DNA of 61,307 bases, counting the filler, from Kipferlia bialata (Eukaryota), in the NCBI GenBank assembly GCA_003568945.1. It is 3 parts of 3 records of this genome, joined end to end, with 100 filler letters (N's around TTAATTAATTAA, not from the genome) between each part and the next. Parts side by side here need not be neighbours in the genome. Positions count along the whole stretch, not along the records: positions 1 to 20,375 come from BDIP01000379.1; 2 more parts are not named here. One strand, given 5' to 3'. The position numbers and the translations under genes were made by a program. The notes beneath the pieces were generated by a model. That model did no database searches. It was not told where the DNA came from and saw nothing but the letters and a program-made list of their open reading frames with translations. Shown piece after piece: positions 215-43,707 of the stretch; positions within the stretch are counted from its first letter, which is position 1; every line of letters begins with the position of its first letter.

Positions 215-3200
215 CTTCTAGCAGCCCCTGGCTCTGCCCCCCCGTGCTTCTCCCCCCAGGACGAGGTAGAGGGAGAGAGGGTACCAGTAGAGGTATATAG
301 TGTATGTGTATATGATGTGTAGAATTACTGTTTTATATTCTTATATCTAATTGTAATCTGATGAGATAGAGGGGGAGAGAGTGCCACTTTAGGTATCGAT
401 ATGTAGTAGTGTTGGACTGGTGTGAAATGTTTCTGACTATGCAAATGAAGGGATATTGAATTTTGGTGTGCTACAACATCCTCTCTCTCTCTACACCCTT
501 AACACCAGGGGTGAGACTCAGGAGGAGAGAGAGATTGACATTATCTTCTTCTCCTCCATATATTCATATATATTTGTGTATATATATACTTATACAATAT
601 ATCTTGCTTCCCCCTTAACACCAGGGTAGTTTATATGTATATATGCCAGAGCATATAATCCCTCTCTGCCTCTCTCTCTCTCTCTCTCGCTACACCCTTA
701 AATCCGGGGTGAGACCCAGGAGGGGAGAGAGATATCCTCCCTTCGTCGCCTTCTCTCCCTCTCTCTCTCTCCCTCTCCCTCTCTCTCTTTGCCCCCCTCT
801 CTATCTTATTACATCTTGTTCTCTCTCTCTACACCCATAAATCCAGGGTGAGACCCAGGAGGAGAGAGAGATTGATAGTGTCTTCTTCTCCATATATACA
901 TTTGTATTTATATATAGTATATATGTATATATGTCTTGCTACACCCTTAATTCCAGGGTGAGACCCAGGAGGAGAGAGAGATTGAGGCCCAGAGGCACAG
1001 AGAGGCCATACAGGCCAGAGTGAGGGACAAGATTGTGGCCAGGGCAGGTATCACTAATATACACTGTGTACATATATATAAGAATGTAATATAAATATAT
1101 ATGTATTTGGTATTATTTATCATTGGTTAGCCAGGCCAGAGTGAGGGACAAGATAGTGGCCAGGGCAGGTATAGCAAATATACATGTATGCATGTAATAC
1201 TACATTGAATTATATATGAATATAGTATTATATACATATATTGTACTACATTCACTTGACGATACCCTGCTGTTGCCATGGATATAAATATTTATATATA
1301 TCTAATGGTAGGCACTGCCCTTGACGATGCCCTTCTGTTGCCATATTGATATATATGTAAATATATATACATATTCCTTTAATATGTATGTGCATCATCT
1401 CAGGCACTGCCCTTGACGATGCCCTTCTCTTGCCATTTAGAATTATATACATATTCATACATATGTATATATTAGTATTCTATATATTCTATATATATCT
1501 CACCCCAGGCACTGCCCTAGATGATGCCCTGCTGTTGCATGTACACACACACACCCACACACACATACACACACACATATATATAGATATATGTATTGTC
1601 TTTGTTCTTAGACTCCAAGCTTATCTAATTGTAGGCCTGCTGTTGCCATGGATATACACATATACATATATATATATTAGTATTCTATATATATAGTTAT
1701 ATATCACCCCAGGCACTGCCCTTGACGATGCTCTGCTGTTGCCAGAGGGATATATATATATATATATAACCCCTATACATATGTGTATATATTCATACAT
1801 ATATATGTCATTTATGTCTCTGACTCCAGGCACTGCCCTGGACGATGCCCTTATGTTCCACACACACACATATATATATATAGATATATAGATAGTAGTA
1901 TATAGATAGTAGTATATATATAGAGATAGATATATGTATTGTCTCTGTTCTTAGACTCCAATCATATCTAATTGTAGGCACTGCCCTGGACGATGCCCTC
2001 CTATATGTCACTATTATGTATATATACCGAGTCCTCTCTCTATATATATCCTCTCTCTCTCTATATATATACCAGTCATGTCTAACCCTCTAGGCACTGC
2101 CCTTGACGATGCCCTTCTGTTGCCAGAGGGGTATGAGCTGTTGACAGGCACAGAGCTGGATAGGAGGTATATTAATACTATATACTATATACAATATACT
2201 ATATATTATATACTATATATATATATATATATTTTTTTTGTATAAGAGTAATAACATGATGGATGTACTATATACTGTCAGAGGGGTATGTTGACAGGGA
2301 CAGAGCTCGATAGGAGGTATATGCAGTGAATGTATACGATATAGTATTATATAACTCATAGGTATTAGGGGTATGAGCTGTGGACAGTCACAGAGCTAGA
2401 TAGGAGGCACTATATATATATAGGTATTTGTTAAACTCACCCCCAGTGAGATTGCTGTTCCTGAGGAGATCATCAACTGCATGTATATATGTATATGTAT
2501 ATATATATGTATTAGTATGCTTTGTGTCTATGTATGTGTATCTGAGTATATCCTCACCCCCAGTGAGATTGCTGTCCCTGAGGAGATCATCGAGCAGTAC
2601 ATCATACAGCCAGGGACAGAGGTACATAAGTATATATGGAGATGTATATATATATGTAAGTGTATATAGTATAGCTCGTGCGTATATATATGCATATCAT
2701 CGAGCAGTACATCATACAGCCAGAGACAGAGGTATGTAATTCACCACATATATGCTCTTTCTATTCTGTATATTATGTCGTTGTGTTTGTTTCAAGTGTA
2801 TTCCATCTCTCTCTCTCTCCGTCCCTCCCTCCTTACGCCTATTTTCTGTCTCTGTCGCTCTTATTTGTGCGTAGGTGTATATGTATGTCACCCACCCCCT
2901 CTCCTTACCCCAGGAGAGTATGCTTAGAGAGAGGGCCTGGAACGCAGTGCACAAGAGGTATGCATACAAAGCATATGATGTATATATTTTTGTGTATGTA
3001 CTGTATATACATAGTGTGTGTGTGTGTGGAACGCAGTGCACAAGAGGTATGCATGTTGATACAGCATGGTCATTGTATATATATCTTATGAATAGGGTAT
3101 ATGACGTGCCATCCAGAAGAGGCATGACATACTCTCCCTCCCCCTATCTCTCTCTCTATATATGTATATATGTATATATATACTTACCTGCTAGAGTGTA

Positions 3201-4379
3201 TGACCGTGCCATCCAGAAGAGACATGACAGGAGAGAGGCAGCCACATCGAGGGAGCAGCACAAGAGAGACAAGGAGAGAAATGCACAGGTACAGCTCTCT
3301 CTCTCTCTCTCTCTCTCCCCCGCTCTGTATATATACATGTATCAAGGAGAGAAATGCACAGATACATATGAGTACAGTTGTGCATGTCTGTTACTCTCTC
3401 TTGACATGTGTACTTTACTGAATTCGTCGCTCTCTCCCCCTCTACACCCTTCACTACTCACCCCAGGTCACTGTGGGGTTCTTCTTTCTCTCTCTCTCCC
3501 TCTACACCCTTTATTTCTCACCCCAGGTCACTGTGGGCGAGAGGGGCAGAGGCAGAGGCAGAGGGCGTGGAACGTACGTAATGTGTCATACATATTGGTA
3601 ATCTCGTGTTCCGTGCATGTGTTTAGATAATTCTTGCAAGTGTGACTATTCCATACTCTCCCTCCCATACTTCTAGCCGTACCCGCACTGGTGCCATTGC
3701 CCATTACCCCTAACTTGTGTATTTATTGATATATGCTTCAATGTGTATGTATCAGAATATGTCACTCCTCTTATACCTAGCCGCCAACGTGGAGAGTGCA
3801 AGGTATATAGTGATACTACTACACATTAATATATTACAGGTGTATATGTATATATATAGCATTAGTATATATGATATGGAGCATATACATGAGTGGGGTC
3901 ATGGATGCACCCAACGTGGAGAGTGCAAGGTATATATATCCATATATATATATGGATATTATGTATAATATATATATATGCTACAACGCGGAGAGTGTGC
4001 GAACATTGGCCCAACTATCCCCGGTATGCCAGACGATACTAGACCATTTATATATATATATGTGTGTGTGTGTGTATGCTATTATTGGCATCTCTCTAAC
4101 ACCCAGGGAGAGAGAGGCCACAGAGACTCCATGTATTCAATATATATATGTATATATATTGTATATATATATATATATATATATATAGTATGAGTGTTAC
4201 ATCCCATCTAACCCCCAGGGAGAGAGAGGCACAGAGACTCCATGTTCTACATATATATGTACATTCATTATATATATATATATATAGTTGGTGTATCATC
4301 TCTAACACCCAGGGAGAGAGAGGCCACAGAGGAGGTCGAGATGGAGATGGAGATGGATATGGAGTTCCTATTCAACTAG
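215..4379 (+). CDS. 3' part of a spliced gene; probable Brf1 (TFIIIB subunit)-like C-terminal region, 5' end off-contig
   Basis: Phase-consistent GT-AG exons at 215-292, 957-1047, 2094-2166, 2564-2621, 2914-2957, 3195-3288, 3527-~3573, ~3677-3693, 3781-3802 and 4313-4379 give ...SAPPCFSPQ...GTALDDALLLPEGYELLTGTELDRSEIAVPEEIIEQYIIQPGTEESMLRERAWNAVHKRVYDRAIQKR...EMDMEFLFN*. The PPxF motif and the 'EIxxYIxxxxExxxxxxxWxxxxxxY' pattern resemble Brf1 homology blocks. The gene is well supported; the Brf1 identity is by eye only. Confidence 0.5.
1254..2410 (+). repeat. Array of intronic copies of the splice-site/half-exon ends of exon 2094-2166
   Basis: AG|GCACTGCCCTNGAYGATGC copies at about 1311, 1403, 1508, 1712, 1829 and 1977, with partials at about 1254 and 1632. 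Exon-end/donor copies at about 2280-2320 and 2367-2408. Copies are separated by (TA)n/(CA)n tracts. Confidence 0.9.
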
Positions 4380-4656
4380 AGGAGCGTCTCGAGCGTCTTA
4401 GGGGTATGGGGCGTTTGGAGCATCACATGCCCCTCGATGTCTACACTATGGGTGTACTTCTCGCTTCTGTCTTCTTCTCTATCATATTCTTTATCGGTTT
4501 CGTGTCTTCTGGCTGTTTGTGATCTCACTTTCGTGTTGGTATTGTATTACCGTGTGTGTTTCTCTATGTGTGTTAATAGATAGGTGATATAGGTAATGTG
4601 TGGACTCTTTATGAAAGGGTATATGTTGCTCTTATACCACATGCCGTAATCAGTGA

Positions 4657-4856: not shown

Positions 4857-6257
4857 CTAGAAGTGCCAGTCCTCCCAGGCCACGCACCTCCTCTCCCTGC
4901 CCCTGCCCTGCTCTCTCTCTCTCTGGTACGGCTTGTAGGTGTGCTGCGCTGCTCTCTCTCTGTCACTCTCAAGCAGATCACCAAGACACCTAGCAGTAAG
5001 GGTTTCAAAAGGACATGTGTATAATATATACATGTACTTTTGATCCGGTATATTTAGGACACATAGGAAAGTTTCCGGGTTTTACCATGCCTGGTGTATA
5101 TGCAGGCATGCAAAATGCCTCCAACTCTAATGAGCCTATATGATATAGACTCATAGATAATAGTCTATATCATATAGACTCTATATAGTAAAGTGATTGT
5201 GACTATATACCTGGCAGAGGGGTCAATCTCTCTCTCCCTCTTCCTCACCCTCTTTGTCTCTGCCTCCCCCTCTTCCTCTTCATACTCTGCCTGGTAGGTC
5301 AGGGGCCCTATACCCGAGCCAGTCTCTGCTAGGGTTAGATATATGCAGGGATAATGAGTTTCACACACTATATGATATATAGGGTTAGATATATGCTGAG
5401 ATACAGATGTACATATCTAGATAGTAGCATACATACCAGAGAGAGTAACTGTCGGGTTAGACATATGCTGAGATATAGAGGTACATAAACTACATGTACA
5501 ACATATATAATAGAGGTACATATAGTATGTGTACTTCATATATATAGATTTACGATACATACCAGCCATAGTGAGTAGCTGCCTATACTTAGTGCCAACA
5601 GGTGCAGTCTCCTCCTCCCTAGAAGTGCTAGACTCCTCTAGGGGTGCTACAGAGGGAGAGAGAGTAGGTAGAGGGTGGCCCAGCCCTGTGACAGGGTGTG
5701 GATGGGGTGACAGGCGCAGGAGGATGTCCCTAGCTGTAGAGTACATGGCCTCGGGGGAGGGGTCTCTGCCCTAAAGTTAGTGTTATGGTCCATGTAATGA
5801 TACCAATATATATATTCACATATATATAATGAATTCCTATAGTCCATGTACTGGTACCATAGATGTCCTACACGTGTACCTCCATGAGTATGTCCATGTC
5901 CACTGGGCGGCATGGCTCCTCGGGGGCTGGGATGGGGCCTGAGTAAGCACGGAAGTACTCTACGAAGGCTCTAATTGCAATATTGGAATTGTGACAATGA
6001 TCCTGTAAAATGTGTATGCAAAGATTATGGTGTATGTGATGCTTGGCACACGGGAGGGACAATACCTGTGTCAGGTGCAGGGGAGGCACTCTCTCTTGCC
6101 GTGAGTCTCTCTGCCTCAGAGATGAACTCAGCTCTGATTGTCAGCTTATAGTATAGACCCTAGATATATGAATATATGAATCGTGGTGTATTTTTGTAGA
6201 AGATGCTGACATAGTCGTATGTACCTCCCCCCCTTGTCCATGGCCTCCTGCAGACCG

Positions 6258-6300
<43 letters not shown>

Positions 6301-9300
6301 TGGATAGATCATAGTGAATTCTTCTAGACGAGTCAAAGTATATGTGGGTTACCTCTCCCCCTTGTCCATGGCCTCCTGCAGAGCACTCTCCACAGCCTAA
6401 GGGTGAGTGAAGTAATTGTCACACAAATCCTCGGTAGTAGAAGAGACTATGCCTGTGGATCAGTCCCCAGAATGAGAGAGATCACATGTATGCAAATACT
6501 GGTTCAATGCGGAAGTCAGCGTATTAGTGACCATACCTCTTGGGCCTGCTCCAATGCAATACTGGTTGGTGGTCTGTCCCATAACTGCCTCATCTTCTGT
6601 TGGGTCTCTGCTACAGTAGAGACAACAGTAGGGGCATAGGTAGAAGCAGTAGGTGCAATGGTAGGTACAGTGGAGGGTAGGGGAGGGGCAGCGTGGTGTG
6701 GGGCCTGAGGTGAGGAAACAGAGTCCACTATTTGTAAAGAGTCATCACGACGCTACAGATGTGTATTGTCTTACCAGACAGGGGTGGTACCCCTTGGTCC
6801 ACCAGGCTGTTCCACAGGCATAGGTATCTATATATATCATAAGCTGTACTCATGATATCAATGTATAGGAGTTGCAATTATAGTACAATTACCATACCAG
6901 ACTGCGGTGATTCCCCTGTCAACCAGGCTGTTCCACATAGAGTATATAGTACATTGTATATATAGTATATAGTTGTTCAGCATTATAGTAACATCAATTA
7001 CTTAGGTATCCTCACCAGGCTGGGGTGGTACCCCCCTGTCCACCAGGCCGGGCCCCACTGCATGTCGGAGGGGTCCTGGGGGTTAGTGGCACTCCTAAGT
7101 ACCAGTACCATATCTGGTATATACTACCCACTGCATGTCGGAGGGGTCCTGGGGGTTAGGAAAGGGTCCCAAGTATATGCATATAGGTATACACAAATAT
7201 GCGAATAGGATCGCGATGGGTACGGAGAGACAGTGTCATGTAAGTGATATATATACTTATATATACTCATTCACCTGATCCCTATAGTCCACCACTGCCT
7301 TGGGTGCCTCCTCGGGTGTGAGACTCAGGGTGGAGGTGTCGAGGGGGACAAGGTCCGGCATCTGATGGTTAGAGTAGTATCTATATGTATCTCTATTATG
7401 ATGGTTAGAGGTTCGAATACGGAAATTGAATTACACTCAGTGTAATGGTTCTTCCTTCGGTTGCGAAATATCGACTATATATGGAACACAAACTCTGTAC
7501 CTCTGGGATCATCTCTCAAAATCTCACATACTTTCGCCATAGTGTATATTGTTATATATATTAAGAATGTATTACTATATATGATACATTTAGAATATCG
7601 TATATACTTTCTACCTCTGGTATCATCACCTCTATCTCATGTCAGATAGCAATTTTAACATAGGTTCAGTCATATGTACGTATACATATATATATGTGTG
7701 GGTATATACTATACACTGTACCTCTGGCATCATGGCCTCTATCTCATGTCTCTTCTGGTCATAGGTCTCGGCACTGGGGTGAGACAACATATGCAGAATA
7801 GTGTCCAAAGTATACCTTATTTAGAATGGAGAATCCAACAGTATAATTCTACCTCTACATATGCTTGAGAATACATCTCTTCTGTCATATGTCTTTGCAA
7901 AGGTGTGGAACAGAAAACGTAGGAGTCTGTATAGAACTCATCCGTGAAAGATATACTATCTATATACATATCTATGTCATATAGAGAGGGACTCGACTGT
8001 ATTAGAGTTGTTATGTACATGAATAAGTACCTCTCCCTCTGGTGCCCCTCCAGCCACCAGATGGCATTGTACACACGGTGCATGGCGGCCTTCCTCTGGG
8101 CCTGAGTATTAATAACACTTAGAAACTATAGTGGTGACCCCTTATATGAAATACATATACCTCTGGTATTGTGCTGCCTGGTGTCTGTATTCGACTTCTC
8201 AGACCATAGAGCAGGAGGTCCAGCTCGGTCTTGGCCTGCATATGAGATAATATTATATATATAGATACATACATATGTGTTGGTACATGAAGTATGTTAA
8301 ACTCTATGGTCGTAGAGCAGGAGGTCCAGCTCGGCCTTGACCTGGGGTAAGAGAGAGAGACAGAGCAGGATTCTGGAACATTCATACCCTCCTGTTTTAC
8401 TACTGGATATTGTATATAGGCCATACACTATATAGCCCATAGGATTGCATTCTGTACCTGGTGCCTGACCCTGACCTTGGCCAGCAGGGTCTTGTTGGCC
8501 AGGACCTAGGATGTGGGTTGCGTATATGGGAAAAATATTGGTTAATAATAATAATATGTTGGCCAGGACCTAGGGGTGAGGCATCTACATAACGTAAAAT
8601 ACATGGGATATGTCGCTAATAAATGTACCTGTTCAGCTGTGGGTGCCGATGGCTCTAAGAAGCTTGCAGGTCTCCCAATGCCGTATCCTGAGTGTAAGGG
8701 TTACACACTGATATATATATATATATATATACTCAATTATGACTCTCTACACCACATACATCCTGTAGTAGAGAGAGGGAGTTTCTCCCGATGCCGTATC
8801 CTATGGGTGTCAGATGCATATAGATACCATATATTGACTCTATAATAGAGACAGAAAGGGAGAGAGAGAAGGAAAACTAGGGTTGCGGTGTCCAGTGGCC
8901 ATATTACTCAAATACCCACAGGAGAGAGGGATAAGAGGGTAGGAGTATACAATGTATACTATACATATATACTAATAATCTATTGTATAGAGTGTATATA
9001 CCTTGTGCCCCAATACCAGCTGCCCTGGTGTAGTCCTGGTAGGACGGGACGGGGGGGACCTGGGGGTAAGTCATATACACACATAGGGAATATGGTCATA
9101 GTATAGGCCTCTCTCAGACACATATGTGCTTCTGTGTATTCTTGATAGCAGGGGACGGGGGGGGGCTAAAGGTTAGTTGATTGGATACATGGTATATATA
9201 TAGTCATAATGAAACACGTGCACATAGGGGACTGGGGTGAAGATAACTATCTGTAGATGTTAAATGGATATAGTACTATTATATACTTTGAGTTTTATTG

Positions 9301-9532
9301 CAGCCTGTGTATATATATTGTATGTAAGTAGGGCTTACGTTAGTCAGTATATCACACCTTGGGCTTTGGTGCAGTAATATATACACTGCATATATTTGTA
9401 TTAATTATACACAGTATGCAAGTGTACCTTTGGCTTAGGCTTAGGCCTGGCCAGGTCACGTGGCATGTATCTCTTGTCTACTCTGCCATCACCCGTCATG
9501 TGCAACCCCTCACGACCCCTGCGCAGTGACAT
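4857..9532 (-). CDS. Multi-exon hypothetical protein containing an Hsp70 C-terminal (lid/SBD-alpha)-like segment followed by a Pro/Ser-rich low-complexity region
   Basis: ATG at 9532 (MSLRRGREGLHMTGDGRVDKRYMPRD...). Exons at about 8458-8506, 8162-8236, 8031-8101 and 7721-7773 give VRVRHQAKTELDLLLYGLRSRIQTPGSTIPEAQRKAAMHRVYNAIWWLEGHQRESAETYDQKRHEIEAMM, matching the Hsp70 pattern AKNxLESYxxxxR...WLDxNQxAxxEEFxxKxxELE. Last exon ends AWEDWHF* at 4857. Confidence 0.6.
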
Positions 9533-10605: not shown

Positions 10606-11595
10606 CCACCCCACCCCAGGATGAGGTGCCCCCTGAGTTCCGCCTCTACATGGTGAGTACACGGTGTGGCCTGGTCTGGCTCTGATCGGTCATCTAAGAT
10701 GACTCATCTTCACTTCATCAATTGTGTACTTCTGCATCTCTCTCTGGTTCCACGGTCCTGTAATTTTCCTATTCTCATTCCTGTCCTTCCCTCACCTTCA
10801 GGACAAGAAGAAGCCTGTCGACAACACTCAGATGTAATGAGCGAGCCAGTATTCTCAGTCCAGTGTTTTTGCTGCAATGGACGTGGGACAATGACCTATG
10901 GGTACCCTTTTGTCTGCTGGGTATCCCACAGGTACATACATACCCCGTTCCGTATTGGGAACTGTTCCATCACTAGTATGTGTGAGTGTATGGTCCATGG
11001 TGTGTCATTTTGTATTCTATCACGGGTTGCCTAGGGTTAAGAGACAGAGTATCGCTATCAGTGTAGATGTGTTGGTACCATCTCCCAGTCACTAAATACT
11101 ACCTGTGTGTCGTGTGGTCTGATTTGATTCGTGAAGGGTGATCATCTACAACCACTCAATATATAGATAGGAAGGGTCCTCCACGGGTGTGGTGTCAGAA
11201 GTCTTCCAGCACGATGTCATTGAGCAGTTATGCATCAGTCTTGCAATGAATCAGCCTCAGGAGACCTGGCTTCCACCTTCAATTATAGGCCTTTTATCGT
11301 GCTCCTCCTAGCCTCGCTCTCTCTCTATCTCTACAGGGCACGATAAAGCGCCACAAATATTGTTTCTGTTGTTCTTGTGGGTATGCACCCAATGTGAACT
11401 TACGCGAGAGGCCGTGTCGTGTTTACAGTGTCAGGTTTGAGTCCAGAAGTTAGTTTTCGACTCGAAATTCGAGTGTCTTTCAAAAACATCTACACCCTTT
11501 CTCCACTCGGTAATGCCGGGTAACAGCGAGCTTAACAGAGAGTGCCTAGGAAATCCACATGCTGACTTCGTCTTCTTCAGGGCCAGAGGCAGGGT

Positions 11596-14500
11596 ATGGC
11601 TGACACAGCCACACAGTTCCAATGCCCCTGTGGGGCGTTCTTTACCGACTGGGCTGGGTATTCAGAGCATGCTGTGGGGTGTGTGGGTACACACACATCA
11701 GAGGTGGAGGAGGTACTCCTGCCAGTGTTCCGGAGCCTTCCTCTGTCAGACATCACCAAGTATACCATCGGGTACGACAGAGTTACTCAGAAGATGGATA
11801 GGAGGCATCCCTTCCACGTAGCTGTGTGGGAGTGCCTGCAGGAGGGGGGTCTTGACCCTGTCCTCTACGGGGGTCTGGGCACCGTCTTTGCCTCGCCCTC
11901 CTCCGACATGGACATCGCAGTGCGGTCTGGCTCATTCATGGACATCAAGATACAGCTTGCGTGTGGCGAGTTAGGTGCAGAGGTCCTCGACATCGGTCGT
12001 CATGCGGAGAGCCGGGATAGGCGACATCTCAAGGTGGGCGCACCCAGTCCAGTACTGTCACACTCTCTATTATGTGTGTCATGCTCACTCTCCCTTGTGG
12101 ATGTATAATCTACTCATTGCTGGATCCAGAGTAATACCAGGGAGTTTTCATTACTCCATATATACTCGATGGAGCTGCGACTCTGGTCGTCTCATCCCTA
12201 ATATGTCCACTATATATCCTATATAGGTGGTCCACTATATATCCTATATAGGTGTCTGTATGTGTGTTCTCCTCTGTGTCTTGGAATATATATGTATATT
12301 AATGTATATATATATATAGTAGACTCTGTTTTCTTTTGGCACCTGTCCCACCCAAGCTGAGCTCCCCCCCCGCCATGTCCCCCAATACCCACGTTGACAT
12401 AGTGTTGGCATCAGACAACAACGGGCCCCAGAAGCGTCAGGTATATGTATGTAGAGTCTCATACCTCTTTCTACTTCTCGGATGAATCTCTGGCTTGCTA
12501 TACTAGTGAGAATGGTCAGTGTCCATCATATTGCCCCTCAAGAGTCCTTCACTGTATCCAACCCATCTATTGTGCAGAGGTCAACGCTCACGCCAGCTGT
12601 TTCTCAACTATGCCACCGTGCTCCCCGTGCTGCCTCAGGTCAAGACCGTCCTCAAGACCCTGGCCTGCCACACCCACTGCCTGGCACCAGGTGGGGGGGG
12701 GGGTGTATGTGCTATGTATATTCACACACACATATATATATTTACATTACTCACTGTCTGACTCCAGGTAACAGGGGTCAGAGAGACACGGAGAGAAATG
12801 CCTCTGAACTCCTGCATAACAGTATGTGGGCACTGGCCAGTGTGTGTCCGGTTCTGCACCCCCCATCGCTGTGTGGCACTCTCTCCCCTGATGTGCGCCG
12901 CAGCCTCCTGTCCGCCGTGGCCCATGCCTTCGATGCGTCCAGTCGGGATGCCCTCATGCGAGGTGTGATGCAGGCGTGGTGCGCATACAACAGCCCTGCC
13001 AGGGTGCAGCAGATGCAGAAGAGGTGTGTTGTGACTGGAACCCCCCTCCAGCACCCTCTGTCACACACCCTCCCCCCCGGCCTGCAGGCCTTGGTGTCTC
13101 CCCTCTACAAGGGTCTCACAGAGGGGGTCGGGGTCCCTGCCCTGGCCACCCGCCTCAGGTATATGTGGCAGTGTCTGTGTCTGTGTCTGCAATATGTATA
13201 CTGTCGATGCTGATACTGACGCCTCAGGGCAGCCAAGCAGGCCAGGGACAGACACCTCATCACCCAGGCGGCACTTGCTGCGGAGTCTGCCCGCAGTGCC
13301 AGGATTAGGGAGTACACGCTGCAGCTGCAATACATTCAGGCCACGATGGCGAGTCCCAAGCTCCGCAAGTGGTTCTCTTCTCCCAAGGCGGTGAGACACG
13401 TGCGGCAGCTGCTGGGACGGAGGGCCCAGTCGCTGAGAGGCACCCTGGCTGACCTCAGCGCAGAGCCTTGCAAGGCCAGGGGTCCATCCAGCCCTGCGCT
13501 CCAGATGTCCCAGAGCAAGGTGAAGCAACTGGCCAGAGAGGCCTCTAACACCGCTGCCCCTCAGGGAGTATCATGTGAGTGTCCCTGTGGCCAGGTGTCA
13601 GCACCACTGTACACTGTGGTTGCCGGCTCAGAGGCTGCAGGGGCAGAGGCGTCCAAGACCAAGACCAAGACCAAGAGGGGGTGCACAGGCCGTGGGTCAG
13701 ACCTGTGTCAGAGTCAGGTGGTACACTATACACTCCCACTGTGCCCCGCTGGGATTCTATCCTGTACTGTATATTGGTGTTCTGTTGATACCGATGCTGA
13801 TACTCCCACAGTGCCCAAGGCTGATGTTCTGATACTGATACTGACTGTTGCACTCCACAGTCAACCTGTATCTCACCCCAGACGCCCAAGGGCCAGTGTC
13901 AGTATCAGTCTCGCTCCCCTGGAGGATCAGAACCAGGGTCCTGTATTGGTGCCGAGAGGGAGAGAGAGGAGCGGGACAGCCTAGTTGCCTCATACCTTGC
14001 AGCCGACAGGGCCCGGGACTCCCTGGTGCGACAGTTGCACCACCAGCGTACCAGGCTCTCCGCCCTCAGGGATGCCAAGCACGGGTTCCCCACTGCACAC
14101 GAGCGTGCCAGCCGAGACCACCTGAGGGGTGTAGTGTCTGGACTGGAGCGCCACCTGAACAGGACGGTGGGGCAGCAGGATGAGCAGAGGAAGAGACACC
14201 CCTGGCTGAGGCAGGCGGTGAGGGAGGCACAGGGGAGGGAGAGGGAGAGGGAGAGGGAGAGGGAGAGGGAGAGAGAGGCCAAGGCCTATCGCAAGAGTAA
14301 GGTGCCCCGTGCCTCTCAGCATAGGGGCACCTCCGGGACTGCTCCCACCTTCACCGGCCTAGTACGAGTACCTCCTGTGCAGGCCAGGCAACCCACACCT
14401 GCACTGCCTGCACCTGCACTGCCTACACATGAAGTGGACCAGACCCACCAGGGCCAGACAGACCAGGGCCAAGGGCCTGGGTCGAAGGGTCTAGGCCACC

Positions 14501-17500
14501 CCCACATGAGGCCGGCACTCTGCAGCCAGGAGGTGTGTAGTTGCCATTTGCCATCACAGTTCTGTCTCTGCTTACGCTACTCATACCCTCGTGATCCTGA
14601 CGGCTGACAGCAGATATCCACTGAGACCCTCCGGCGTCAGGTGGACTCTCTGCTAGCATCGGCAGCCATGCCCCGCAGTGGAGTGGCTCTGGTGGCTAAG
14701 AAGGTGTTTGTCTGTCTCCGTGCTCACGACCATCCATATAGGCATCATATATATATATATATATATAGGCATCATGGATACATATCGTTACCCCTCTCCC
14801 CCACCCTCTATTGCCAACCCCAGCTGGTGGATACCCTGACCCAGGACCCCTCCGAGGCCGAGTGTCTTGTGACCGACCCCACCCAGCTCAGAGACCGGGT
14901 GGCCCAGGAGCTCACCAAGCTGAAGGCCACTGCGTCGTATGCAAGGCTGATCCCCCTGGGCCTTGACCTCTCTGCATGTCGGTCTGCATATGGTGCATGT
15001 CGGTCGGTGCCAGCTCCTGCACTGCCACCCTCCTCCCATCCACCTCGTGCTGGTGGTGCACCGTCTACACCGTGTGTCCCAACCACTGGACATGAGACTG
15101 ACACGGATGCTGATACTGATACGGATGCTGATGCTGGTACTGATAAGAGTGGCGGTAGCACACAGCCTTCTTGGGCTGACCCCGCTACCTGTGCCGACAC
15201 TGCTGCCAATACCTGCCAACCATCAAACCAACCATCAAACCAAGCGTCTAGAGCTGCACATGCTGGACATGCTGATGGGACACGGGGGACAGGGGTAGGG
15301 GAGGTCACAGAACTGCCGTCCCACCAGGCCGACCCCAAGGACAGACCTCTCTCTCTGGCGGATACTGCGGACCAGGTACCTTTTATGGGTGTATCTACCA
15401 GATATATATATGGATACAGACTTTCGTCTATTAGAGGGACCTGATAATGGTTGTTGTGTGGTTAACGGCTCTGTTGTGTATCAATCAGCGTCCCTCAACC
15501 CAGAGCCAAACCACACACGCACCAGTGTATAGGCCCCCCTCTCCCTCAATTGACCCTCAGTGTATCAGTATCGCCTCAGGTGTCCCAGGGACGTCTGCTC
15601 GTCTGCTGTCTGGGGTCACCCAGAACCCTGCCCCCGACAGACCCCGCCCCTCTGCACCTACTTCCTCTTCCACCTCCAGGTCCCCTCCCTCTGTATATAT
15701 ATGCTATGTTATATTGAATGCGACTGATTCTAGGCCTACGGAGTCGGACCGGGTGATTGTGCATGTGTCTGCCGCGTCGTGCTATAACTGTGGCGAGACG
15801 GGCCACCCCTCGTCGCAGTGCCCCCACCCCATACTGTGCAAGAGGTGCGGGGGGGNNNCACCCCTCGTCGCAGTGCCCCCACCCCATACTGTGCAAGAGG
15901 TGCGGGGGGGCAGCCCACATCCAGTATGAGTGCACGCAGCGGAGGGGGGGGAGGGGGGCCGAGTCTAGCTGTGGAATCAGCTCCGTGTCTGCATCTGATG
16001 GGTCTGCTGTGTCTGGCCAGGCCCCACCTGTGTCTGCAGGATCAGTATCAGTATCACAGGCAGGGCAGGCAGTGGAGGCAGTGGAGGCTGTCGGCGGCAC
16101 ACACACACACGTACCTGCCTACCTGTCTCTCATCCCGACAGAGGGCTCGCTGTCAGACCTAGCGGGTGTCGGCAAGAGTAGTAAGAGGAGACCCCGTAAA
16201 CACAAAGAGACGAAGGTCCAGACACCCACCCGCCGTTTGGGGGTCAAGGGTGGGGGGCATGCACAGACGAGGGAGACAGGTAGTGTCCATCGCACTGAGC
16301 TACCTATGTCTAGTGTTGATGTCTCTGTATACAGGTCAGTTCTGCCCACCAGAGGCACTCTCACAGACCTGGCCGACGTGTGTGGACATGGGAGGAGAGG
16401 ACAGGGGAGACGGCCCACAAAGCTGTCCCAGCCAAACCCACCTCGGCAGAGGGCAGTAGCAGCCCCCCTTGCCAGTCTGACCAGTCTGACTAGTCTCGTC
16501 ACGGAGAGACCCTCCCGCACCCACCTCCTGGGGCATCCCCACCTGGGGCACTCCGATGGGTGTGATGGCCCATCCTGTCAGCACAGTCTGTATGGACACA
16601 CAGACAGGGGACACACAGACAGTGGACACACAGACAGGGGACACACAGACAGTGGACACACGGACAGGGGACACATGGACAGGGGACACACAGACAGTGG
16701 ATACACAGACAGGGGACACACAGACAGTGGACACACGGACAGTGGACACACAGACAGTGGACACACAGACAGTGGACACACGGACAGGGGACACACAGAC
16801 AGTGGATACACAGACAGGGTCAGAGCACCCGGCCCCCCTAGCAGTCCGTGCTCACAGGCCGACCCCCAGGACGCACATGCCTGGCACGGTGTGTTTGGAA
16901 GTTGCTCTGACAGCACAAGTGAGTCTGGCACGGATGGAGGGTTCGACTGCTGTTGTGATCAGTGCAAGGTGCCAGGGTCAGAGTCAGTGTCAACTGGGTC
17001 AGTGGGACCGGGGCCCGATACTGATGCTGATGCCGAGGGTGTGCACACTGATACTGACACTGATACTGAGGTGCAGGTGCAGGTGCAGGTTCAGCCCGAG
17101 GAGACAGACCTGCACCGTGTGTATACACACGCTCTGGAGGTAGTCGCAAAGGGCATGGCCCTTAGGGAGGCAGCCCAGCACATACCTGGCACAAAAGTGT
17201 CCCTGTGCGTGTACAGTGTGGCTGATATGCTGCGGTGGCAGACACAGCCAGGGTGTCTGGCAGAGCCACCCGTCAGGCTGGTGTCGGAGGAGCACAAGAG
17301 AATGCTCATGAGGTGCGGTGTCTCAAGGGTCTCCTGTCACAAGGGGGGCCACCCCCACCCTCACCCAAAGAAGCAGGGCTCCAATGCCCCTGCTGCTACT
17401 GTGCAGGAGAGGCCACCTCAGGAAACGCCTCGCACACATGCACCTTCCATGCCCACATCTGATGCGACTGGGCATGGCCCTGCGTCCACTGGTGATGATG

Positions 17501-20375: not shown

Positions 20376-20475
20376 NNNNNNNNNNNNNNNNNNNNNNNNN
20401 NNNNNNNNNNNNNNNNNNNTTAATTAATTAANNNNNNNNNNNNNNNNNNNNNNNNNNNNNNNNNNNNNNNNNNNN
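20376..20475. other. Artificial scaffold-concatenation linker
   Basis: 44 N + TTAATTAATTAA (stops in all six frames) + 44 N. Confidence 0.95.
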
Positions 20476-28946: not shown

Positions 28947-31900
28947 TCAGCGCCTCCTGCCCTTGTGCTCGTGTAGACACTGCTCACAGACCTTGACCCT
29001 GGGGTGAGGGCAGAGTAGTATCATTGAATACATACATATATATATATATGTGAATATACACACAATGCTACTTACTGTACACTGACCTTGTGTACCCCAG
29101 GTCTGGCAGGTCCACCACATGGCTGCAACACTTGGAGCACAGCACCCTCCCACAGGCACGGCAGTGGTGGCGTCTACAGTGAGTAAGTACGTGACAAGCA
29201 AGGGAGTAGACAATTGACCAACCTGTTTAGGAACTTGCCAAATGCCACACCGCACTCTGGACACACTAGCATGTTGGCATTGATCTCCCACTGGGGGCGG
29301 AGGCCCACCTAGGTGTTAGAACATACATGCATACACTAATACATATTGGAGTGTGGTATACAGTATAGTACAGGAAGGGTATGGTACCTGCTCCCTTGTG
29401 ACCCCCTTCCCCCTCCCGCCCATGCCCTGCAGAGTGGCAGTGTCTCTGTCTAGGAGAGAGTCAACCCTGACAGTCAGAGAGAGAATGATTCCACTATATA
29501 CTATATACCCTACACAATCAGTATATACATATACAACTATACCTCCCCATGACGTCGTCCATGGCACTGGTGATGCCCTAAGCACATACATAACCACTAT
29601 ATATACATATATACTCTATATACACTACACTACTGTATGTACCTCCCCATGACGTCGTCCATGGCACTGGTGATGCCCCTCAGATAGGGTGCAGGGGTGA
29701 AGGGTACAGGGGATGCACTGAGTGGGGAGGCAGGGGTGTCTGGGACCACAGGCTCTCTTAGTAACTGACATGCAGAGGCACCCCCAGAGACAGCGGAGAG
29801 GTCGAGGACTGACACAAACCTACAGGTTAGGAGGGGTAGATGGAGACGGAGAGAGAGAGAGACAGCGGAGTGGTCCAGGACAGAGACGAACCTGGGGTAA
29901 ACAGAGTAAAGACAGTCATGGAACGAAGTATATATATGATATAGAGAAGAAGCGGAGGGAGACCAAGTGGAAGGGAGAAAGAGAGCAGGACAGGGTATGG
30001 CTATGTACCTAGCGATGTCTGGTGGGAACAGGGACGGGACGGGGTAGAGCTGATGGCCAACCTGGGGGTGAGGGTGCATATATATAGAGCGCAGAAAACA
30101 GTCCTTTGCATATATATACACTCATTTACATCAACAATAATACCTTCACCAGCCTCTCACACCCAGCTGCATAGAGCAGGACTAGCTTGACAAGGGCAGG
30201 GCCTGTGATGGCACGGGAGTCAGCTGGAGTCAGTGAGAGATATATATATATATATGGACTAGTGTACAGTATATACTATGTATACCTTCCATCTCGTCCT
30301 CACTGCACTCTGCCCCTTCGTTGCCCTCTCCCTCTCCCTCGGTCACACCCACTACCCCAGCCACGCATATGGCAGCCAGGTATGCCACGGGTGGGACACC
30401 AGCCCCGTCTGTGGCATCGGGGTCGGCACCTGCAGCCTAGGGTTAGAGTGAGAGAGAGAGAAAGAGGGAGAGAGAGAGAGAGAGAGAGAGCTGAAGCATC
30501 GGGGTCGGCACTGGCAGCCCAGGGTGAGAGAGAGAGAGAGAGAGAGGGGGGGAATGCAATAGTACTCTTAGTAAGATAGAGAGAGACGTACCAGCAGCGC
30601 TGCAAACACAGTGGGACTGCCTGTTAGGGCTGCCACGTGCAGAGGGGTGAGTCCAAACTCATTGGAGGCACCGACGGCACCGGTGATGGCTGAGCCTGGG
30701 GGGGTGAGGGAGGGGAAAGAAGGGGTTGAGCGAAGGGGGACTCGCTACAAATATCTATAGTAATCATACTATTGTATATGTCTATACCTAGTCTGAGCAA
30801 GCTGAGCAGCCCCCTGACTGCCTCCTTGTCCTCTGGCACAGCATCACATATATATACATAGTGTAGTATATATACGTGTATGTCTATACCTAGTCTCAAC
30901 AGACTCAGTAACCCCCTGACTGCCTCCTTGTCCTCTGGCACAGCATCACATATATACATATACATAGTAGTATNNNNNNNNNNNNNNNNNNNNNNNNNNN
31001 NNNNNNNNNNNNNNNNNNNNNNNNNNNNNNNNNNNNNGTCTCAACAGACTTAAGAGTCCTCTCACTGCCTCCTTGTCCTCTGGCACAGCATCGCCCAGGG
31101 CACCGTGGGTCTTGGTCTTGCACTTGGTCTGGGGGTGAGACACCAAGGTATATACAGCTAGATCTGATATATATATATGAAATCAGGTCGCGTTGCTTGG
31201 TCTGGGGGTCAGGCACATATGTATATGTATATATATGAAGTGACAGGATAGTGTTTAGAATTGTGGGTCTTGGTCTGGCACTTGGTCTAGAGGTGAGTCA
31301 GGGAGTATTACACACATAGCAGTTATAGATACACCCGATATTAGAAGTGAGTGACAGTGTATAGAATTGTGGGTCTTGGTCTTGGTCTTGCACTTGGTCT
31401 GGGGGTCAGCCATTAAGGAATATGATACAGGTATATATACACACACACATACTATATATGGATACACCCATACCTCCATTGTGACGCTGTCCACGTGTCT
31501 CAGCAGTGCAATCAGCCACACCCTGGCGGCATCAAGCAGTCTGAAGGGGTAAGGAGGGAGAGAGAAAGAGGAGAAGAAATACATAGTATCCAGCAGTCTG
31601 AAAGGGGTCAGAAGGGGGAGAGAGAGTGAGGGAAAATGAACATGAATACAATCAATATAGACTTCATTAGTATATATTCATATACATCCAGCAGTCTAGG
31701 GGTCAGAGGGGAGAAGTGGAGTGGGTGTAGCAGAGATAAGAATATATATATATACCTTCCAGCCTCCTTGACCGCATCCTCAATCTCAAATGCATCACTG
31801 TCCTCATACTATCTATGACACATATACACTAATTAGTGTATATATATATATATATATGAATATGCATATATACCTCCCGGCCTCCTTGACCGCGTCTTCA

Positions 31901-32695
31901 ATCTCAAATGCATCACTGTCCTCATACTATCTATAACACATATATACTAGTTAGTGTATATATATATATATATACATACCTCCCGGCCTCCTTAACCGCA
32001 TCCTCAATCTCAAATGCATCGCTGTCCTCATCGCTGAAGGTGTCATAGATGTCAAGGTCATCGGCCGCTAGGCCAAACCTGGGTGTGGGTGTGAATTATT
32101 TATTAATTATTACAATGCTATAGACATATTCAGCACTCTATCTATAGTGTTATATATATATACAGTGTATACACTAACAGTGGCACATACCTCAGCAGCA
32201 GGGGCAGCAGGGACAGCTCAAACACAGAGTCAACGGCACAGCGCCTGGGGTCAGGGGGACACACATACATACACATACATACATAAGCATCAGCGTATGG
32301 CTCTGGGTATATGTACCTTGGAATGAGTGCGCGCCTCTCCTCCGGTGTCTCCCCCCACCCCCCTGCCTTAGTCACACACTGTGTGTGACAGGGGGTGGGG
32401 CACCCACAGGACTGCGTGGCACGCTCACACTCCCTGGCGTCCTGGGGTTCGAGAGATCTACATACATACACATATACATGAGTATACATACTGTACCCAC
32501 CTGATCCCCGACCCAGTTGACCAATGGCAGTATGAGGGATGCCACTGGGAAGGGAATGGCAGTGTCGGAGTCGTGTCTGGGGGTGGGGAGAGACATAACA
32601 AAGAGAGAGAGATGACATAGGAGAGCATGCACTACAAATCATCCCCACCCACCTTCCCTCTCCCTCCCCGTGCCATGCTATGTCGTCCACACGGG

Positions 32696-32738
<43 letters not shown>

Positions 32739-33878
32739 CACCAGATGCAAGGTACACCCACCTACTATCCCCGTTTCCATGTCCTGCTATGTCGTCCACA
32801 CTGTATCTGCTGTAGCTGGAGGGCACACAGCGCAGCACCTGGGGTGTCAGCACAAGAGTTTACATATATGTCTAGATTGTGAAGGTGTCGACACACTAGT
32901 GTGCATAGTAACTAGTAACTACATACGTATATTCCTGTGTGTGTGTGTCGCTGGGGGTGCAAAACAGTGTGTATATATACATACCTGCGTGTGTGTGTCC
33001 CTAGTGCATAACAGTATCCAAGTGTGCAATGTATAGAATACAGTGTATATATACATAAGTATACTTGCGTATGTGTGTCCCTGGTGCATGGCAGGTAGTG
33101 GTAGGGCACATTCCCGTCTGAGTCTCTGGCCGATGTGCCCTCTCCCAGTGTCCTCCTCCTGGCCACACTGGCACCGGCCTCCATCCCTACCTCACCCCCG
33201 GAGAAGGTGTCAGCTAGGAGTTAGGGGTACATATTCACATATATACTTACATACATAAGTATTAGAGATAGAGACACAGTACCTAGTAGCGATATGACGT
33301 CTCGGGGTGTGATGACAGCACTTGAGGCTGGGTATACTACACATACAATATATATATATATATACCAGGGGGGAGTGATATATAGTACCTAGTAGGGATA
33401 TGACGTCTGGGGGTGTGATGACAGCACTTGATGCTGAGGTGGGTGAGAAGGAGAGGTCACTGGCCCTCTCCTTGTCCCTCTCTGCCATCTCAGCCCTGAG
33501 GGCCTCAGCAACAGACATCTAGGGGTGATAAGGGGTGTAGGGAGAGAGAGAGAGGAAGAGAGAGTTTGTGTGTGAGAAAGATATACTCACACACACCCCC
33601 TACCTGAGGGGAGAGTGAAAGTGACCCCCTCCTGGACTGTCTGGGGGATGGGGAGTGGAGGAGGTTGGACAGGGAGTCTGAGACACCCTGCATCTGTCGG
33701 TCCTGGGTATGAGTATACACAAAGAATATATATATTATATACAGAATAGTACTTCATGGGGCATCGTACCAGGCTACCCTGTGCTGAGTCTGTCCCCTCT
33801 CTCTCCTTGCCCTGTGCCTTGTCAGATGGTCTGGATTGGCCATCTCCATAGGACTGGGCCTGGGTTAGGTATGTGTAT

Positions 33879-33917
<39 letters not shown>

Positions 33918-34149
33918 TAGAGGGTCATGCTTGAATGCGTATGATACCTCTGCCGACCCACAGTCCAGTGCGAGGACATGGATCAAGGGCACACGGACCT
34001 GGGGGGTCAGGGGACACGGAGGGAAGGAGAGAGAGAGAGGGAGAGAGTGTGTTACCCACCCTAGGCTCTGGGTGGCATATGATGGACACAAAGGCAGCTG
34101 GGAGGCAGTGGAAGGGGCGGATGACACTGAGGGTAAGAGGGCGCCATAT

Positions 34150-34189
<40 letters not shown>

Positions 34190-34288
34190 TCATAGGTATA
34201 CCTGTTGGGGCTGTCGAAGAGTGCGTTGTGGGTATCGTCACCAATCTCCACCTCAGACCCACACAGCCACCTGGATGTTAAGGGTGTA

Positions 34289-34326
<38 letters not shown>

Positions 34327-34935
34327 CTGATGGACCTCTGGGACTGTACCTCCTTGCACCGGGTATAGAGCTCACTGGAGGTAAGGAGGGGGTCGTGACA
34401 AGGTGTGACAAGGTGTGTATGGACATGTACCTGTAGTATCTGCACCCAGCCAGTATGCCGCACTCCTCTGCGAATGTCCTCCTCCTCAGCAGATCATCGG
34501 TCAGCTTGGTCTCGCCTAAAGGTCAGTGATGCGAATGAACAACAATACAAGTATATAATGGTACATACGTATATAGTGGATCCTCAGTCAGCTTGGTCTC
34601 GCCTAGGGGGTCAGATATACAGCGTAGACGAATAGGGTGCTATAGAACTAGGTCTGGGGGGTCCGGGAGGAGACGGGTGTATAGGTATAGAGTGAGATGT
34701 TAGGTATTCCCCTACCTAGCAGGGCCAGCGTCCATACATGTACATGTAGGGTGTCATCTACTTTGTAGAATAACATGTATCATAATGTATCATAAAACAA
34801 CAGACTCCCTGTACCTAGGAGGGCCAGGGTCCTCCTGTCAAACCCTGATGCAGCGGCATATGCACAGGCACGACGCAGCTGACCTCTGGCATACTTGAGA
34901 ACCTTTGGTCAGAGAGAGAAACGGAAAGAGAGAGG

Positions 34936-34968
<33 letters not shown>

Positions 34969-37900
34969 CCGTACCAGTGCCTCCAGCTCTGCAAAGGCCA
35001 AGGAGGTGCCCGACCCCTGGGACAGACCGGTCACCTGGGGTTAGGATGCATATAAATACCATTAGAGATGCAACTTATACTACTATTTACTATTCATGGA
35101 ACACCCACCTTTGCCAGCGTGTCATACTCGACGTGTCTGAACGAGTCCCTCAGGGTTGGGAAGTATGTGGTGCTGATGGTCTCCATCAACATACGGACAA
35201 CGTCAGACAGGCCGTTTCTAGGGGTTAGAGAGAGGTAGATAGATAGATATATATATAGAGAGAGAGAGAGAGAGTATACCTTGCTGCCAGGATAGCCAGG
35301 TGTGGTAGAAGGGTGGTGCGGCGCATGCCCAGGACCTGTTGGTCGGGGTCACTCTGCATGACCTAGGGGTGAGGGAGGGAGTATGTCTACCCACTATTAC
35401 AATAACTATGCATATATACATTTAGGTAGTGACATACCTTTGGCTTGTTCCTCTGTCTCCTGACGGCAGAGTATGTAGCGATGGAGAGAGAGGAGGCAAG
35501 CTTGGAGGCAAGGGCGGCTGTCTCCTCATTGGGCTGTGCATCACCCTCTCCCTCTCCCTCTCCCTCTCCCTCTGCCTCCTCCTCCTCCTCTTCCTCTGTG
35601 ATAGGCTGTGCCTGTACGACATGCATGACAGTACTGGATGGTACACAGCTGAGACCAGAGGCGTAGGAGCTGTACCCGCTGAAGGAGGCCCAGCCATCCT
35701 GGGGGTAAGGGAGAGGGAGAGAGAGAGTGTGTGAGAGTCATACTAAATATATACATATACCATATGTACAATTAGTATACCTCTAGTGCCTGTTCCGACA
35801 GACTGTGCTTGTCCACGCACTCTGCCAGTACCCTCAGGTGGTAGCTGTCCAGGATGCCAGAGAGAGAGGGACCGTCCATCTGACAGTCAGAGACGAAGTC
35901 TATACACTGACCTAACTAAACACAATGATTAGATGTTAGAGAAGTACTATCGCTAGTATATCTGGAAATTCACACTAGTGGTACCTGCAGGTGTCGGAGT
36001 GGTCCCTGTATCTCCTGCAGGAGGGGTATCTTGGCAAAGACACCCAGCTGGGCAGAGAGGTGGCCTGCAGCAGCCAGCATCTCGACAGACCTGGCAGTCT
36101 CTGAGGGTGAGGGGGAGAGTAGGACAGGGGTGGTATGTATAGAGAGTAAGTATAGGGAGGATATGTATACATATGTGTATATATAGTCACCTGCTATGGG
36201 CCTTCTGGCCTGGCACAGGTAGGACAGAGGGGTGTTACCGGTGGCATCAATCCAGCCAACTATCACCCTGGGGTTAGGTGGAGAGGAAAAGAGTAGCAGT
36301 AGGCCTATAGGAAAGTGTACCTGACGTCTGCTGTGCCGCAGCTGTTGATCATTCTGACCAGGGTCTATTAATGTATCTATCTCTCTATGTATCTCTCTAT
36401 ATATACGTGTATATCCATACCTGACGTCTGCTGTGCCGCAGCTGTTGATCATCCTGACCAGGGGCTCAAGACACACATCACTGTAGGGGTGAGAGAGGGA
36501 TGTATCAGTGTGTATATAGATACTGATACTGGTACTAGGGTGATTGTATGGCAGGCCTACTAGTGATAGTGTACCTAGGGGGCCTGGTCTCCTCTCCCTT
36601 GGCCTGTCTGTCGATGCAGGCACACCTGGGGTGGGGGGAGAGAGATACCTTGCATAGTCCACAAGTGTCTGCTATACATACATATACATACATATATACA
36701 CATACTAGTATATGTATATATACAAATACGCATACCTAGCATAGTCCACCAGGGGCACTGAAGAGATATGTGCTCGGGTGTTGTCATACATCAGCACACA
36801 TATATATACATCCCCCTCTCTCTCTCTATATATATATATATATGTACATGCATACATAAATGCATACCTAGCATAGTCCACCAGGGGCACTGATGAGATA
36901 TGTGCTCGGGTGTTGTCATACATCAGCACATATATATATACATCCCCCCCCCTCTCTCTCTCTATATATATATATATATACATGCATACCTAGCATAGTC
37001 CACCAGGGGCACCCAGGGGAGGGGCAGCGAGGTGGGCTGCCAGGCAGGCATCACGGTGTCACCCCTGAGGCCTAGGATGGGGGTGGAGTCTCCAGATATA
37101 CTGCACACATACAGCAAACATCACAATGGTACACCACTCCATATGGATGTTACCTAGCAATGCTGGGAACTCTGCGATGTTGCCTGCACAGCTGGAGCCA
37201 TCGGGGGTGATCCTGAGGGGTGAGAGAGACGACATATACAACAGGTCTGGGGGTGATGTAAAGTCTGTACTATTGACTATACCTGGGAGGGAGTGAGAGG
37301 GATGAGAGCTGGCTGGCTGCAATGTGCAAGGGTGTCCTGTGCAGCTTGTCAGTGAGGGCAAGGACAGCGGTCACAGGGGCAGCAAGGGTGCCTGGGGGTG
37401 GTAAACACACATATAGTATACAGTATAAAGAATATATAACATTCACATTATAGATAGGTTTAATATAGTGACAGGGGCAGCCAGGGTGCCTGGGGGTGGT
37501 ATATGCAATATACATACTGATTCAACAATGCTCGATAGACCATGATTCTCTATACTAATGATCATTGAATCAGTATATCCCTACCTGTGAACTGGCCAGA
37601 GATGAGGGCATCACAGACCTGGAGGTCAGAGAAGACAGTACAGACACACATATATATAGAGAATTGGCACAACACTCGAGGCAACTAATACTGATTGGTG
37701 TGAGAGTCACCGTACCTCAGTCAGTAGCTCCACACTGCTAGAGTAGACAGCACAGTGCAGCACTGACCTGGGGTAAGGGAGAGATAATGATCATGGCAAC
37801 AAAACCCACAGTACGGACACTACTATTATACAAAGAGAGATACATAGGCCTCACCCGAAGTACTCTGACACAGCCAGCACATTGTCAAAGGGCAGCAGCA

Positions 37901-39358: not shown

Positions 39359-39410
<52 letters not shown>

Positions 39411-40841: not shown

Positions 40842-40941
40842 NNNNNNNNNNNNNNNNNNNNNNNNNNNNNNNNNNNNNNNNNNNNTTAATTAATTAANNN
40901 NNNNNNNNNNNNNNNNNNNNNNNNNNNNNNNNNNNNNNNNN
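40842..40941. other. Artificial scaffold-concatenation linker
   Basis: 44 N + TTAATTAATTAA + 44 N. Confidence 0.95.

Positions 40942-43667: not shown

Positions 43668-43707
<40 letters not shown>

Follow-up and report, generated by a model that had tools for sequence, protein, structure and literature searches.

Why should a single intron carry eight partial copies of the start of the exon that follows it, and how might those copies be passed over in splicing? The question arises in gene g1, which lies in the 61,307-nucleotide stretch of Kipferlia bialata DNA under study here (the window). We use the term 'echo' for a partial copy of the start or end of a neighbouring exon, splice site included, that sits in the adjoining intron, and all echo counts given below come from this one window. 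The window probably comprises several joined scaffolds and not one continuous locus, as suggested by short linkers carrying stops in all frames within runs of N at 20420-20432 and 40886-40897.

Genes in the window are built from short GC-rich exons (GC 0.60) and AT-rich GT-AG introns (0.40), as judged from four curated models. The g1 model (plus strand, 215-4522) was built by hand, and its nine exons keep the reading frame open over 235 codons, with a hydrophobic segment at the end. A small gene finder was used to model g4 and seven other genes, and the seven automatic models are predictions. For g4, manual curation removed four predicted exons judged to be echoes (one of them with an RNA check), three ends were shifted and one exon was inserted, after which both parts of the gene are stop-free; an N gap falls within one of its echo arrays. 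The domain order of g4 may resemble that of rabankyrin/ANKFY1. The likeness between the g1 and g2 proteins is not significant, with 20 of 300 shuffles reaching the same score. Searches for relatives found none for the last g1 exon (sequence, atlas and metagenome searches), for the open reading frame at 11590-12033 or for an exon of g4, and the search with the ankyrin exon returned generic clusters only.

In g1, the intron at 1048-2093 holds seven AG-preceded copies of the start of exon 3 and one that lacks the AG, in agreement with a sequence-only reading of this DNA that had reported six to eight acceptor echoes; the four copies whose codons it had quoted are present at 1404, 1509, 1713 and 1978, each one nucleotide from where it had placed them. 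Its further statement that the echoes all encode ALDDALL holds for five of the eight start copies, the others being those at 1830 (ALDDALM), at 1255 (LDDTLLL) and at 1635, which is without most of the motif. Downstream of exon 3 lie two copies of the exon end that include the donor position. Two leucine codons each occur in three silent states in this array, and the distinct changes in the exon 3 cluster are 11 synonymous and 5 non-synonymous, which gives p = 0.0006-0.002 if the neutral share is set at 0.27-0.30 and only p = 0.049 if a share of 0.45 is used. The GC content is 0.34 in intron 2 and 0.58 in the exon. Two pairs of spacers in the array have clearly been duplicated again (scores 28 and 39 of 45). 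The other spacers of the g1 array mostly cannot be aligned, either among themselves or to the flank of the real site, which bears on whether the spacers might form a dispersed sequence family, as introner or transposon insertion with a long target duplication would predict. No N gap interrupts the array. By eye and outside the counts, the 22-nt exon 3781-3802 is seen to recur at 3984-4023 in a longer and diverged form that ends in GT, and the final exon of g1 has two acceptor echoes at 4107-4243.

Table 1. Positions of exons, echoes and genes discussed in the text, numbered along the window
Feature	Position	Strand	Remarks
g1 exon 2	957-1047	+	Bounded by AG and GT; upstream exon of the echo-laden intron
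Three copies of exon 2 start	510-538, 708-733, 847-875	+	Flanking intron alike too
Exon 2 end copied over 37 nt, then GT	1132-1168	+	1 synonymous change
Exon 3 start fragment, no acceptor AG	1255-1278	+	From the echo search
Exon 3 acceptor echo	1312-1343	+	32 nt identical to exon 3; intron flank differs
Exon 3 acceptor echo	1404-1435	+	1 synonymous change
Exon 3 acceptor echo	1509-1538	+	3 synonymous changes
Exon 3 acceptor echo, 18-nt in-frame internal deletion	1635-1648	+	Below search threshold; outside the counts
Exon 3 acceptor echo	1713-1753	+	3 synonymous changes
Exon 3 acceptor echo	1830-1857	+	1 synonymous and 1 non-synonymous change
Innermost exon 3 acceptor echo	1978-2002	+	2 synonymous changes
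g1 exon 3, sole complete copy (AG...GT)	2094-2166	+	Modelled as the spliced exon; open frame
Exon 3 donor echo, GT kept	2276-2316	+	5-nt deletion; 2 synonymous and 1 non-synonymous change
Exon 3 donor echo, GT changed to GC	2367-2406	+	1 synonymous and 2 non-synonymous changes
Further g1 echoes	2447-2474, 2696-2731, 3027-3046, 3105-3129, 3343-3361, 3911-3929	+	From the echo search
Exons bearing the further g1 echoes	2564-2621, 2914-2957, 3195-3288, 3781-3802	+	g1 model
Gene g2	6225-9499	-	11 exons modelled by hand; 9 echoes
Gene g4	28947-40073	-	About 50 exons; N-terminal ankyrin repeats, C-terminal FYVE finger; 19 echoes
Two g4 donor echoes	30808-30947	-	Synonymous changes only (7 and 3 counted)
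g4 intron holding four echoes (two donor, two short acceptor)	31474-32078	-	Donor after 31980 and acceptor before 31540 used

The echo pattern is real and is spread across the window. An ungapped search of each of 136 modelled exons against its two neighbouring introns gave 52 matches in 253 exon-intron pairs, compared with a single match in 349 pairs when non-adjacent introns were searched at the same threshold. Short or gapped copies such as those at 1635, 3467, 31205, 31598 and 31696 miss this threshold, and the counts are therefore lower bounds. Echoes accompany 29 of the 136 exons (26 of 70 in g1, g2 and g4, and 3 of 66 in the automatic models), and they are found at 24 of 85 exons of up to 120 nt versus 5 of 51 longer ones. 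Thus, the acceptor echoes that the sequence-only reading saw in one intron belong to a pattern that is window-wide and two-sided, with donor echoes as well.

Each echo covers 13-55 nt of one exon end, and the polarity of the copies is nearly invariant: all 25 upstream copies are exon starts, and 26 of the 27 downstream copies are exon ends, the one remaining copy being half of a donor echo that is split. This polarity indicates head-to-tail duplication across one splice site. Where an intron holds both kinds, the donor echoes come before the acceptor echoes (5 of 5), and consequently no counted pair of echoes encloses a false exon. Some donor echoes on the minus strand do stand behind an AG, forming possible mini-exons of 22 nt each at 36757-36736 and 36889-36868 and a possible in-frame mini-exon of 45 nt at 33327-33283, and these are candidates for exon gain. 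In a PH-domain gene (43307-44562, minus strand), a short duplicated acceptor piece is found near 43720 by an AG repeat.

The repeat unit, measured to the nearest copy, has a median length of 106 nt (interquartile range 88-113, n = 30). Spacers are at least 51 nt long in 31 of 33 cases, and their lengths are distributed like those of echo-free introns (KS p = 0.51), which are about 80 nt long. By a rough unit count, echo units make up approximately 30-60% of the intron DNA in g1, g2 and g4. For 15 of 43 echoes, the flank matches that of the echo's own real splice site within the top 5% of all sites, where about 2 would be expected, which indicates that intron DNA was copied too; the other 28 fall outside the top 5%. 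Flank likeness is 0.63 for acceptors and 0.54 for donors versus baselines of 0.51 and 0.40, and some units align over 95-200 nt. An origin of the echoes from cDNA was considered and rejected, given that many copies bring intron flank with them. The exon parts of echoes are 94.5% identical to their exons whatever the divergence of the flank, and identity of flank and of exon part are uncorrelated (rho 0.06 and 0.24). A copying tract of fixed length would predict an inverse relation between echo and spacer lengths, which the data do not show (rho -0.11). Finally, some pairs of echoes have a junction in common and yet carry substitutions between them.

The sequence-only reading had noticed an excess of synonymous differences, and a formal count finds this excess to be significant both at exon 3 and across the window. 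Among the 49 echoes of curated genes (the 3 echoes in automatic models were left out), there are 54 synonymous and 32 non-synonymous distinct changes, with 61 of the 86 at third codon positions, and counting in the two wrong frames as a control gives ratios of 5:81 and 8:78. In simulations that included detection, neutral decay gave a mean synonymous share of 0.25, and serial snapshots of one allele, in which the exon keeps gaining silent changes, gave a mean of 0.38; none of 1500 runs of either kind reached the observed 0.63. Counted exon by exon, synonymous changes are in the majority in 14 of 23 exons and in the minority in 5, with 4 ties (p = 0.00065 against 0.42). Divergence per site is about 0.16 for synonymous and about 0.03 for non-synonymous changes. 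The signal is carried by g1 (16:7) and g4 (33:13) and is absent in g2 (5:12), and one g4 echo goes against the bias with 3:7. Synonymous changes lie nearer the splice site in 41 of 59 cases and non-synonymous changes in 17 of 29 (p = 0.29-0.35, with one echo extended by hand).

The splice sites of the echoes are also largely intact. AG is kept in 19 of 22 acceptor echoes and GT in 19 of 23 donor echoes, and the score equals or exceeds that of the real site for 7 of 22 acceptor echoes and for 12 of 23 donor echoes. Loss of splice dinucleotides amounts to 6-7 of 90 nt, compared with the non-synonymous divergence of 0.03 (p = 0.02-0.05). Using YTVAY as a branch-point-like consensus, we find a match within 16 nt of the AG in four of the six exon 3 copies scored and in 76 of 105 modelled real acceptors. 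Across the window, 73 of 105 modelled acceptors have a branch-point-like motif at a short, fixed distance of 6-10 nt from the AG. The suggestion that the splice signal of the echoes was itself constrained is right insofar as AG and GT are mostly kept, and the selection behind it probably dates from a time before these copies existed as echoes, because from every one of the seven echo acceptors in g1 intron 2, read-through meets a stop before the end of the real exon.

Evidence on which sites are used comes from the g4 region 31465-32090 and from run X2, which we took to be RNA by guess. Record 7 of this run is a 2876-nt contig that covers only exons and bridges the g4 intron listed last in Table 1, with 69 and 91 letters aligned. 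Between the aligned pieces stand 8 letters, identical to the 8 exon bases that a junction of the innermost donor with the innermost acceptor would leave there. The loose end of the record is identical to the next exon in its innermost copy and to none of the three echoes of that exon. In total, the contig skips seven echoes in two g4 introns and contains no echo letters. The innermost site is thus used in g4, and this is likely to be general; for g1, the spliced exons are those of the gene model. Minor use of echoes may exist, since contigs drop rare splice forms. Run X2 contains 0.09 of the words of 900-4400, against 0.088 expected from exons alone, a figure that we do not count as evidence. 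In the DNA run X1, possibly from the source sample, the g4 exon is present in a single version. An exon-fragment/intron junction occurs in two of its records, exactly in one and with 1 difference in the other; by a 31-letter rule, no X1 record bridges the junction. Contig depth is 447-487 over echo pieces and 461 over unique DNA and is not a measure of copy number.

Exon definition and recursive splicing had been suggested as possible ways in which several apparently valid acceptors are skipped. Pairing of innermost sites fits the geometry of the echoes, and the spliced g4 contig shows it, in keeping with exon definition. Recursive splicing, which places extra acceptors inside an intron, is not supported: it expects AG|GT, and a GT start is found in 3 of 14 exons that bear acceptor echoes versus 25 of 91 others, without enrichment. 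Counting GT and GC starts together gives 8 of 14 versus 39 of 91 (p = 0.39), and two-step removal through an exon-final AG shows no enrichment either (14 of 17 versus 39 of 50). Exon 3 begins with GC in a donor-like context and may be used recursively in a GC-type manner.

Exon-like intronic copies with silent-site differences also arise by duplication of tandem or mutually exclusive exons. However, mutually exclusive exons are whole exons with both AG and GT, whereas the echoes hold one splice site and 13-55 nt of one end, and read-through fails from all seven acceptor echoes in g1. Closer precedents are known from human genes. In CBS, the 844ins68 allele contains a 68-bp duplication of the junction between intron 7 and exon 8, and the inner site (termed 'donor' in the paper) is strongly preferred and yields normal mRNA (PMC2630376). 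In F7, the tandem units of the 37-bp IVS7 minisatellite span an exon-intron boundary, and five to nine functional donor pseudo-sites remain silent while the most upstream donor alone is used (PMC1557585). The echoes share with this kind a head-to-tail copy containing one splice site and part of an exon, and use of the site by the intact exon (in one g4 contig, across two introns). As to copying of adjoining intron, it is seen for the same 15 of 43 echoes, the remaining flanks being indistinguishable from those of other sites. CBS 844ins68 resembles the present case in its junction-spanning copy and in the use of the inner site (here seen in g4), but it is one locus with one extra copy, whereas here a site may have as many as eight copies, 29 of the 136 exons are affected, both polarities occur and the copies differ at silent sites. 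Likewise, the F7 pseudo-sites are identical, whereas the units here are about 106 nt long, have diverged or unalignable flanks and include acceptors in a mirror pattern. Intron gain by internal tandem duplication (PMC4974935, citing Gao and Lynch 2009) similarly involves partial duplication within a gene with one copy spliced out; there a new intron results, whereas here existing introns lengthen, and the g4 contig skips its whole echo block as one intron. Our searches of the openly accessible full-text literature turned up no description of dense, two-sided echoes with a synonymous bias, and the stem 'duplicat' is absent from the main text of the K. bialata genome paper (PMC5874029). A reduced spliceosome has been reported for this species (PMC6679479). 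What is already known, then, is a set of single human junction-spanning precedents, and for the density and codon bias seen here no precedent was found in these searches.

These observations led us to consider that the echoes arise by duplications of about 100 nt that cross a splice site, that the innermost sites are used, and that the copies are the former working exon ends of diverged haplotypes, an account to which we give slightly less than an even chance as a whole. The duplicated unit, as observed, is one exon end plus about one intron length of AT-rich spacer, and it would be generated by unequal recombination or by aborted break repair. Splicing would put up with such duplications if sites are paired over the short, GC-rich exon, in line with the innermost pairing seen in g4 and presumed in g1; the outer acceptors, having no near donor, would be ignored, as would the outer donors, and selection would remove copies that create a new AG...GT pair or alter the exon. 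A break in the exon could then be repaired with about 100 nt from the homolog, reaching across the splice site and followed by end joining, or alternatively a crossover might occur between an echo and the exon of the homolog. In either case, the displaced exon end would stay behind as an echo with its own intron flank, and later unequal exchange, apparent in parts of the array, may re-duplicate echo units. With one spliced copy per chromosome, the silent-site variants would have been in use together on different chromosomes. Error-prone repair is described in a review as one source of tandem duplications of 10-1000 bp (PMC7407515). Metamonads have been reported to lack canonical end joining and to depend on homologous repair (10.1101/2021.03.14.435266), which is context that applies here if the organism is a metamonad.

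A haplotype origin of the copies is the reading that we favour, and several observations weigh against it: no second haplotype is seen at the g4 exon in run X1, g2 and one g4 echo run counter to the bias (5:12 and 3:7), and the unalignable spacers and 28 of 43 unmatched flanks imply that divergence in the introns of these alleles would have to be several times as fast as at silent sites. Flank and exon-part identity being uncorrelated, and echo and spacer lengths showing no inverse relation, also count against it. Diverged alleles would be unnecessary if old duplications in one lineage were kept exon-like by gene conversion and array collapse, which we regard as an unlikely but serious alternative. 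Recombination between repeats would then make the codons and splice site of an echo the working ones, so that damaged echoes would carry a load and be purged in a large population. The single haplotype seen, the mostly retained AG and GT, the 94.5% identity of exon parts regardless of flank divergence, and the echo at 1312, identical over 32 nt beside an unrelated flank, are all as this account expects. However, one-way conversion from exon to echo yields the snapshot ratio, which the simulations reject, purging requires a rate of collapse or back-conversion that, multiplied by population size, is well above 1, and splice dinucleotides have been lost at least at the non-synonymous rate, the opposite of insurance. 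Serial snapshots, in which past exon ends were duplicated, the exon shifted silently, the echo decayed and slippage quickly scrambled the AT-rich flanks, provide the simplest model, which fits g2 and which exon 3 alone rejects marginally (p = 0.049). This model is nevertheless improbable: none of the 1500 simulations reaches the window-wide share, the nearest echoes are not the most similar while the distant echo at 1312 is identical, single sites show three different silent states, and flank divergence far exceeds twice the 0.03 decay.

The codons could also be under direct selection if echoes were in current use through alternative, recursive or trans-splicing. Most echo sites look usable, with 7 of 22 acceptors and 12 of 23 donors scoring as well as the real site or better, two g4 donor echoes with an AG just ahead could form mini-exons, and exon 3 has its GC start. 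Yet each echo acceptor in g1 intron 2 runs into a stop, GT and GT/GC starts are not enriched, and the g4 contig joins innermost sites only, without echo letters; we consider current use to have little probability, as low as that of serial snapshots. Very improbable, in our judgement, is an assembly artefact in which tandem stitching joined alleles or strains whose introns had diverged. The assembly is of a short-read style with N gaps, one of them within an echo array, the unit length is close to a read length, X1 contains 0.80 and not all of the words of 900-4400, and no DNA record spans the junction by the 31-letter rule. On the other hand, the g1 array is free of gaps, a single exon version is seen, and echo pairs share a junction and carry different substitutions. 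In addition, junctions from mid-exon to AT-rich DNA would exist in no working allele, yet they occur in two records of X1, which may be the source sample.

In organisms with short introns, pairing of splice sites across the intron is usually assumed. The echoes are natural tests of competition in cis, in which outer sites of both kinds, though intact, are left aside in introns that without echoes measure about 80 nt, and they make the choice between exon and intron definition testable in a short-intron eukaryote. Through them, introns can also grow and exon ends be replaced while the number of introns stays the same, and they will mislead gene finders, the one used here having taken four of them for exons in g4. 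If the silent differences do come from other haplotypes, one genome would record allelic diversity and recombination in a lineage for which other isolates may be lacking. A broader proposal, on which we are a shade more doubtful than on the account above, is that exchange of exon ends between haplotypes of deep divergence is routine in this genome and that the displaced ends are stored in its introns, so that it would contain a fossil record of alleles and cryptic recombination, with tens of thousands of splice-site competitions settled by strict innermost pairing. The density, polarity and codon bias of the echoes would surprise a specialist in splicing or genome evolution.

Two further genes were noted in the window. 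A large plus-strand gene with long exons (48600-60420) encodes FG-GAP-type repeats, and its 15 modelled exons carry no echoes; a protein search gave 20 distant matches at 25-35% identity, and the homologs carry PF14312. At 16593-16817, fifteen copies of a 15-nt coding repeat lie in a long open frame, in a gene that ends in CCHC zinc knuckles.
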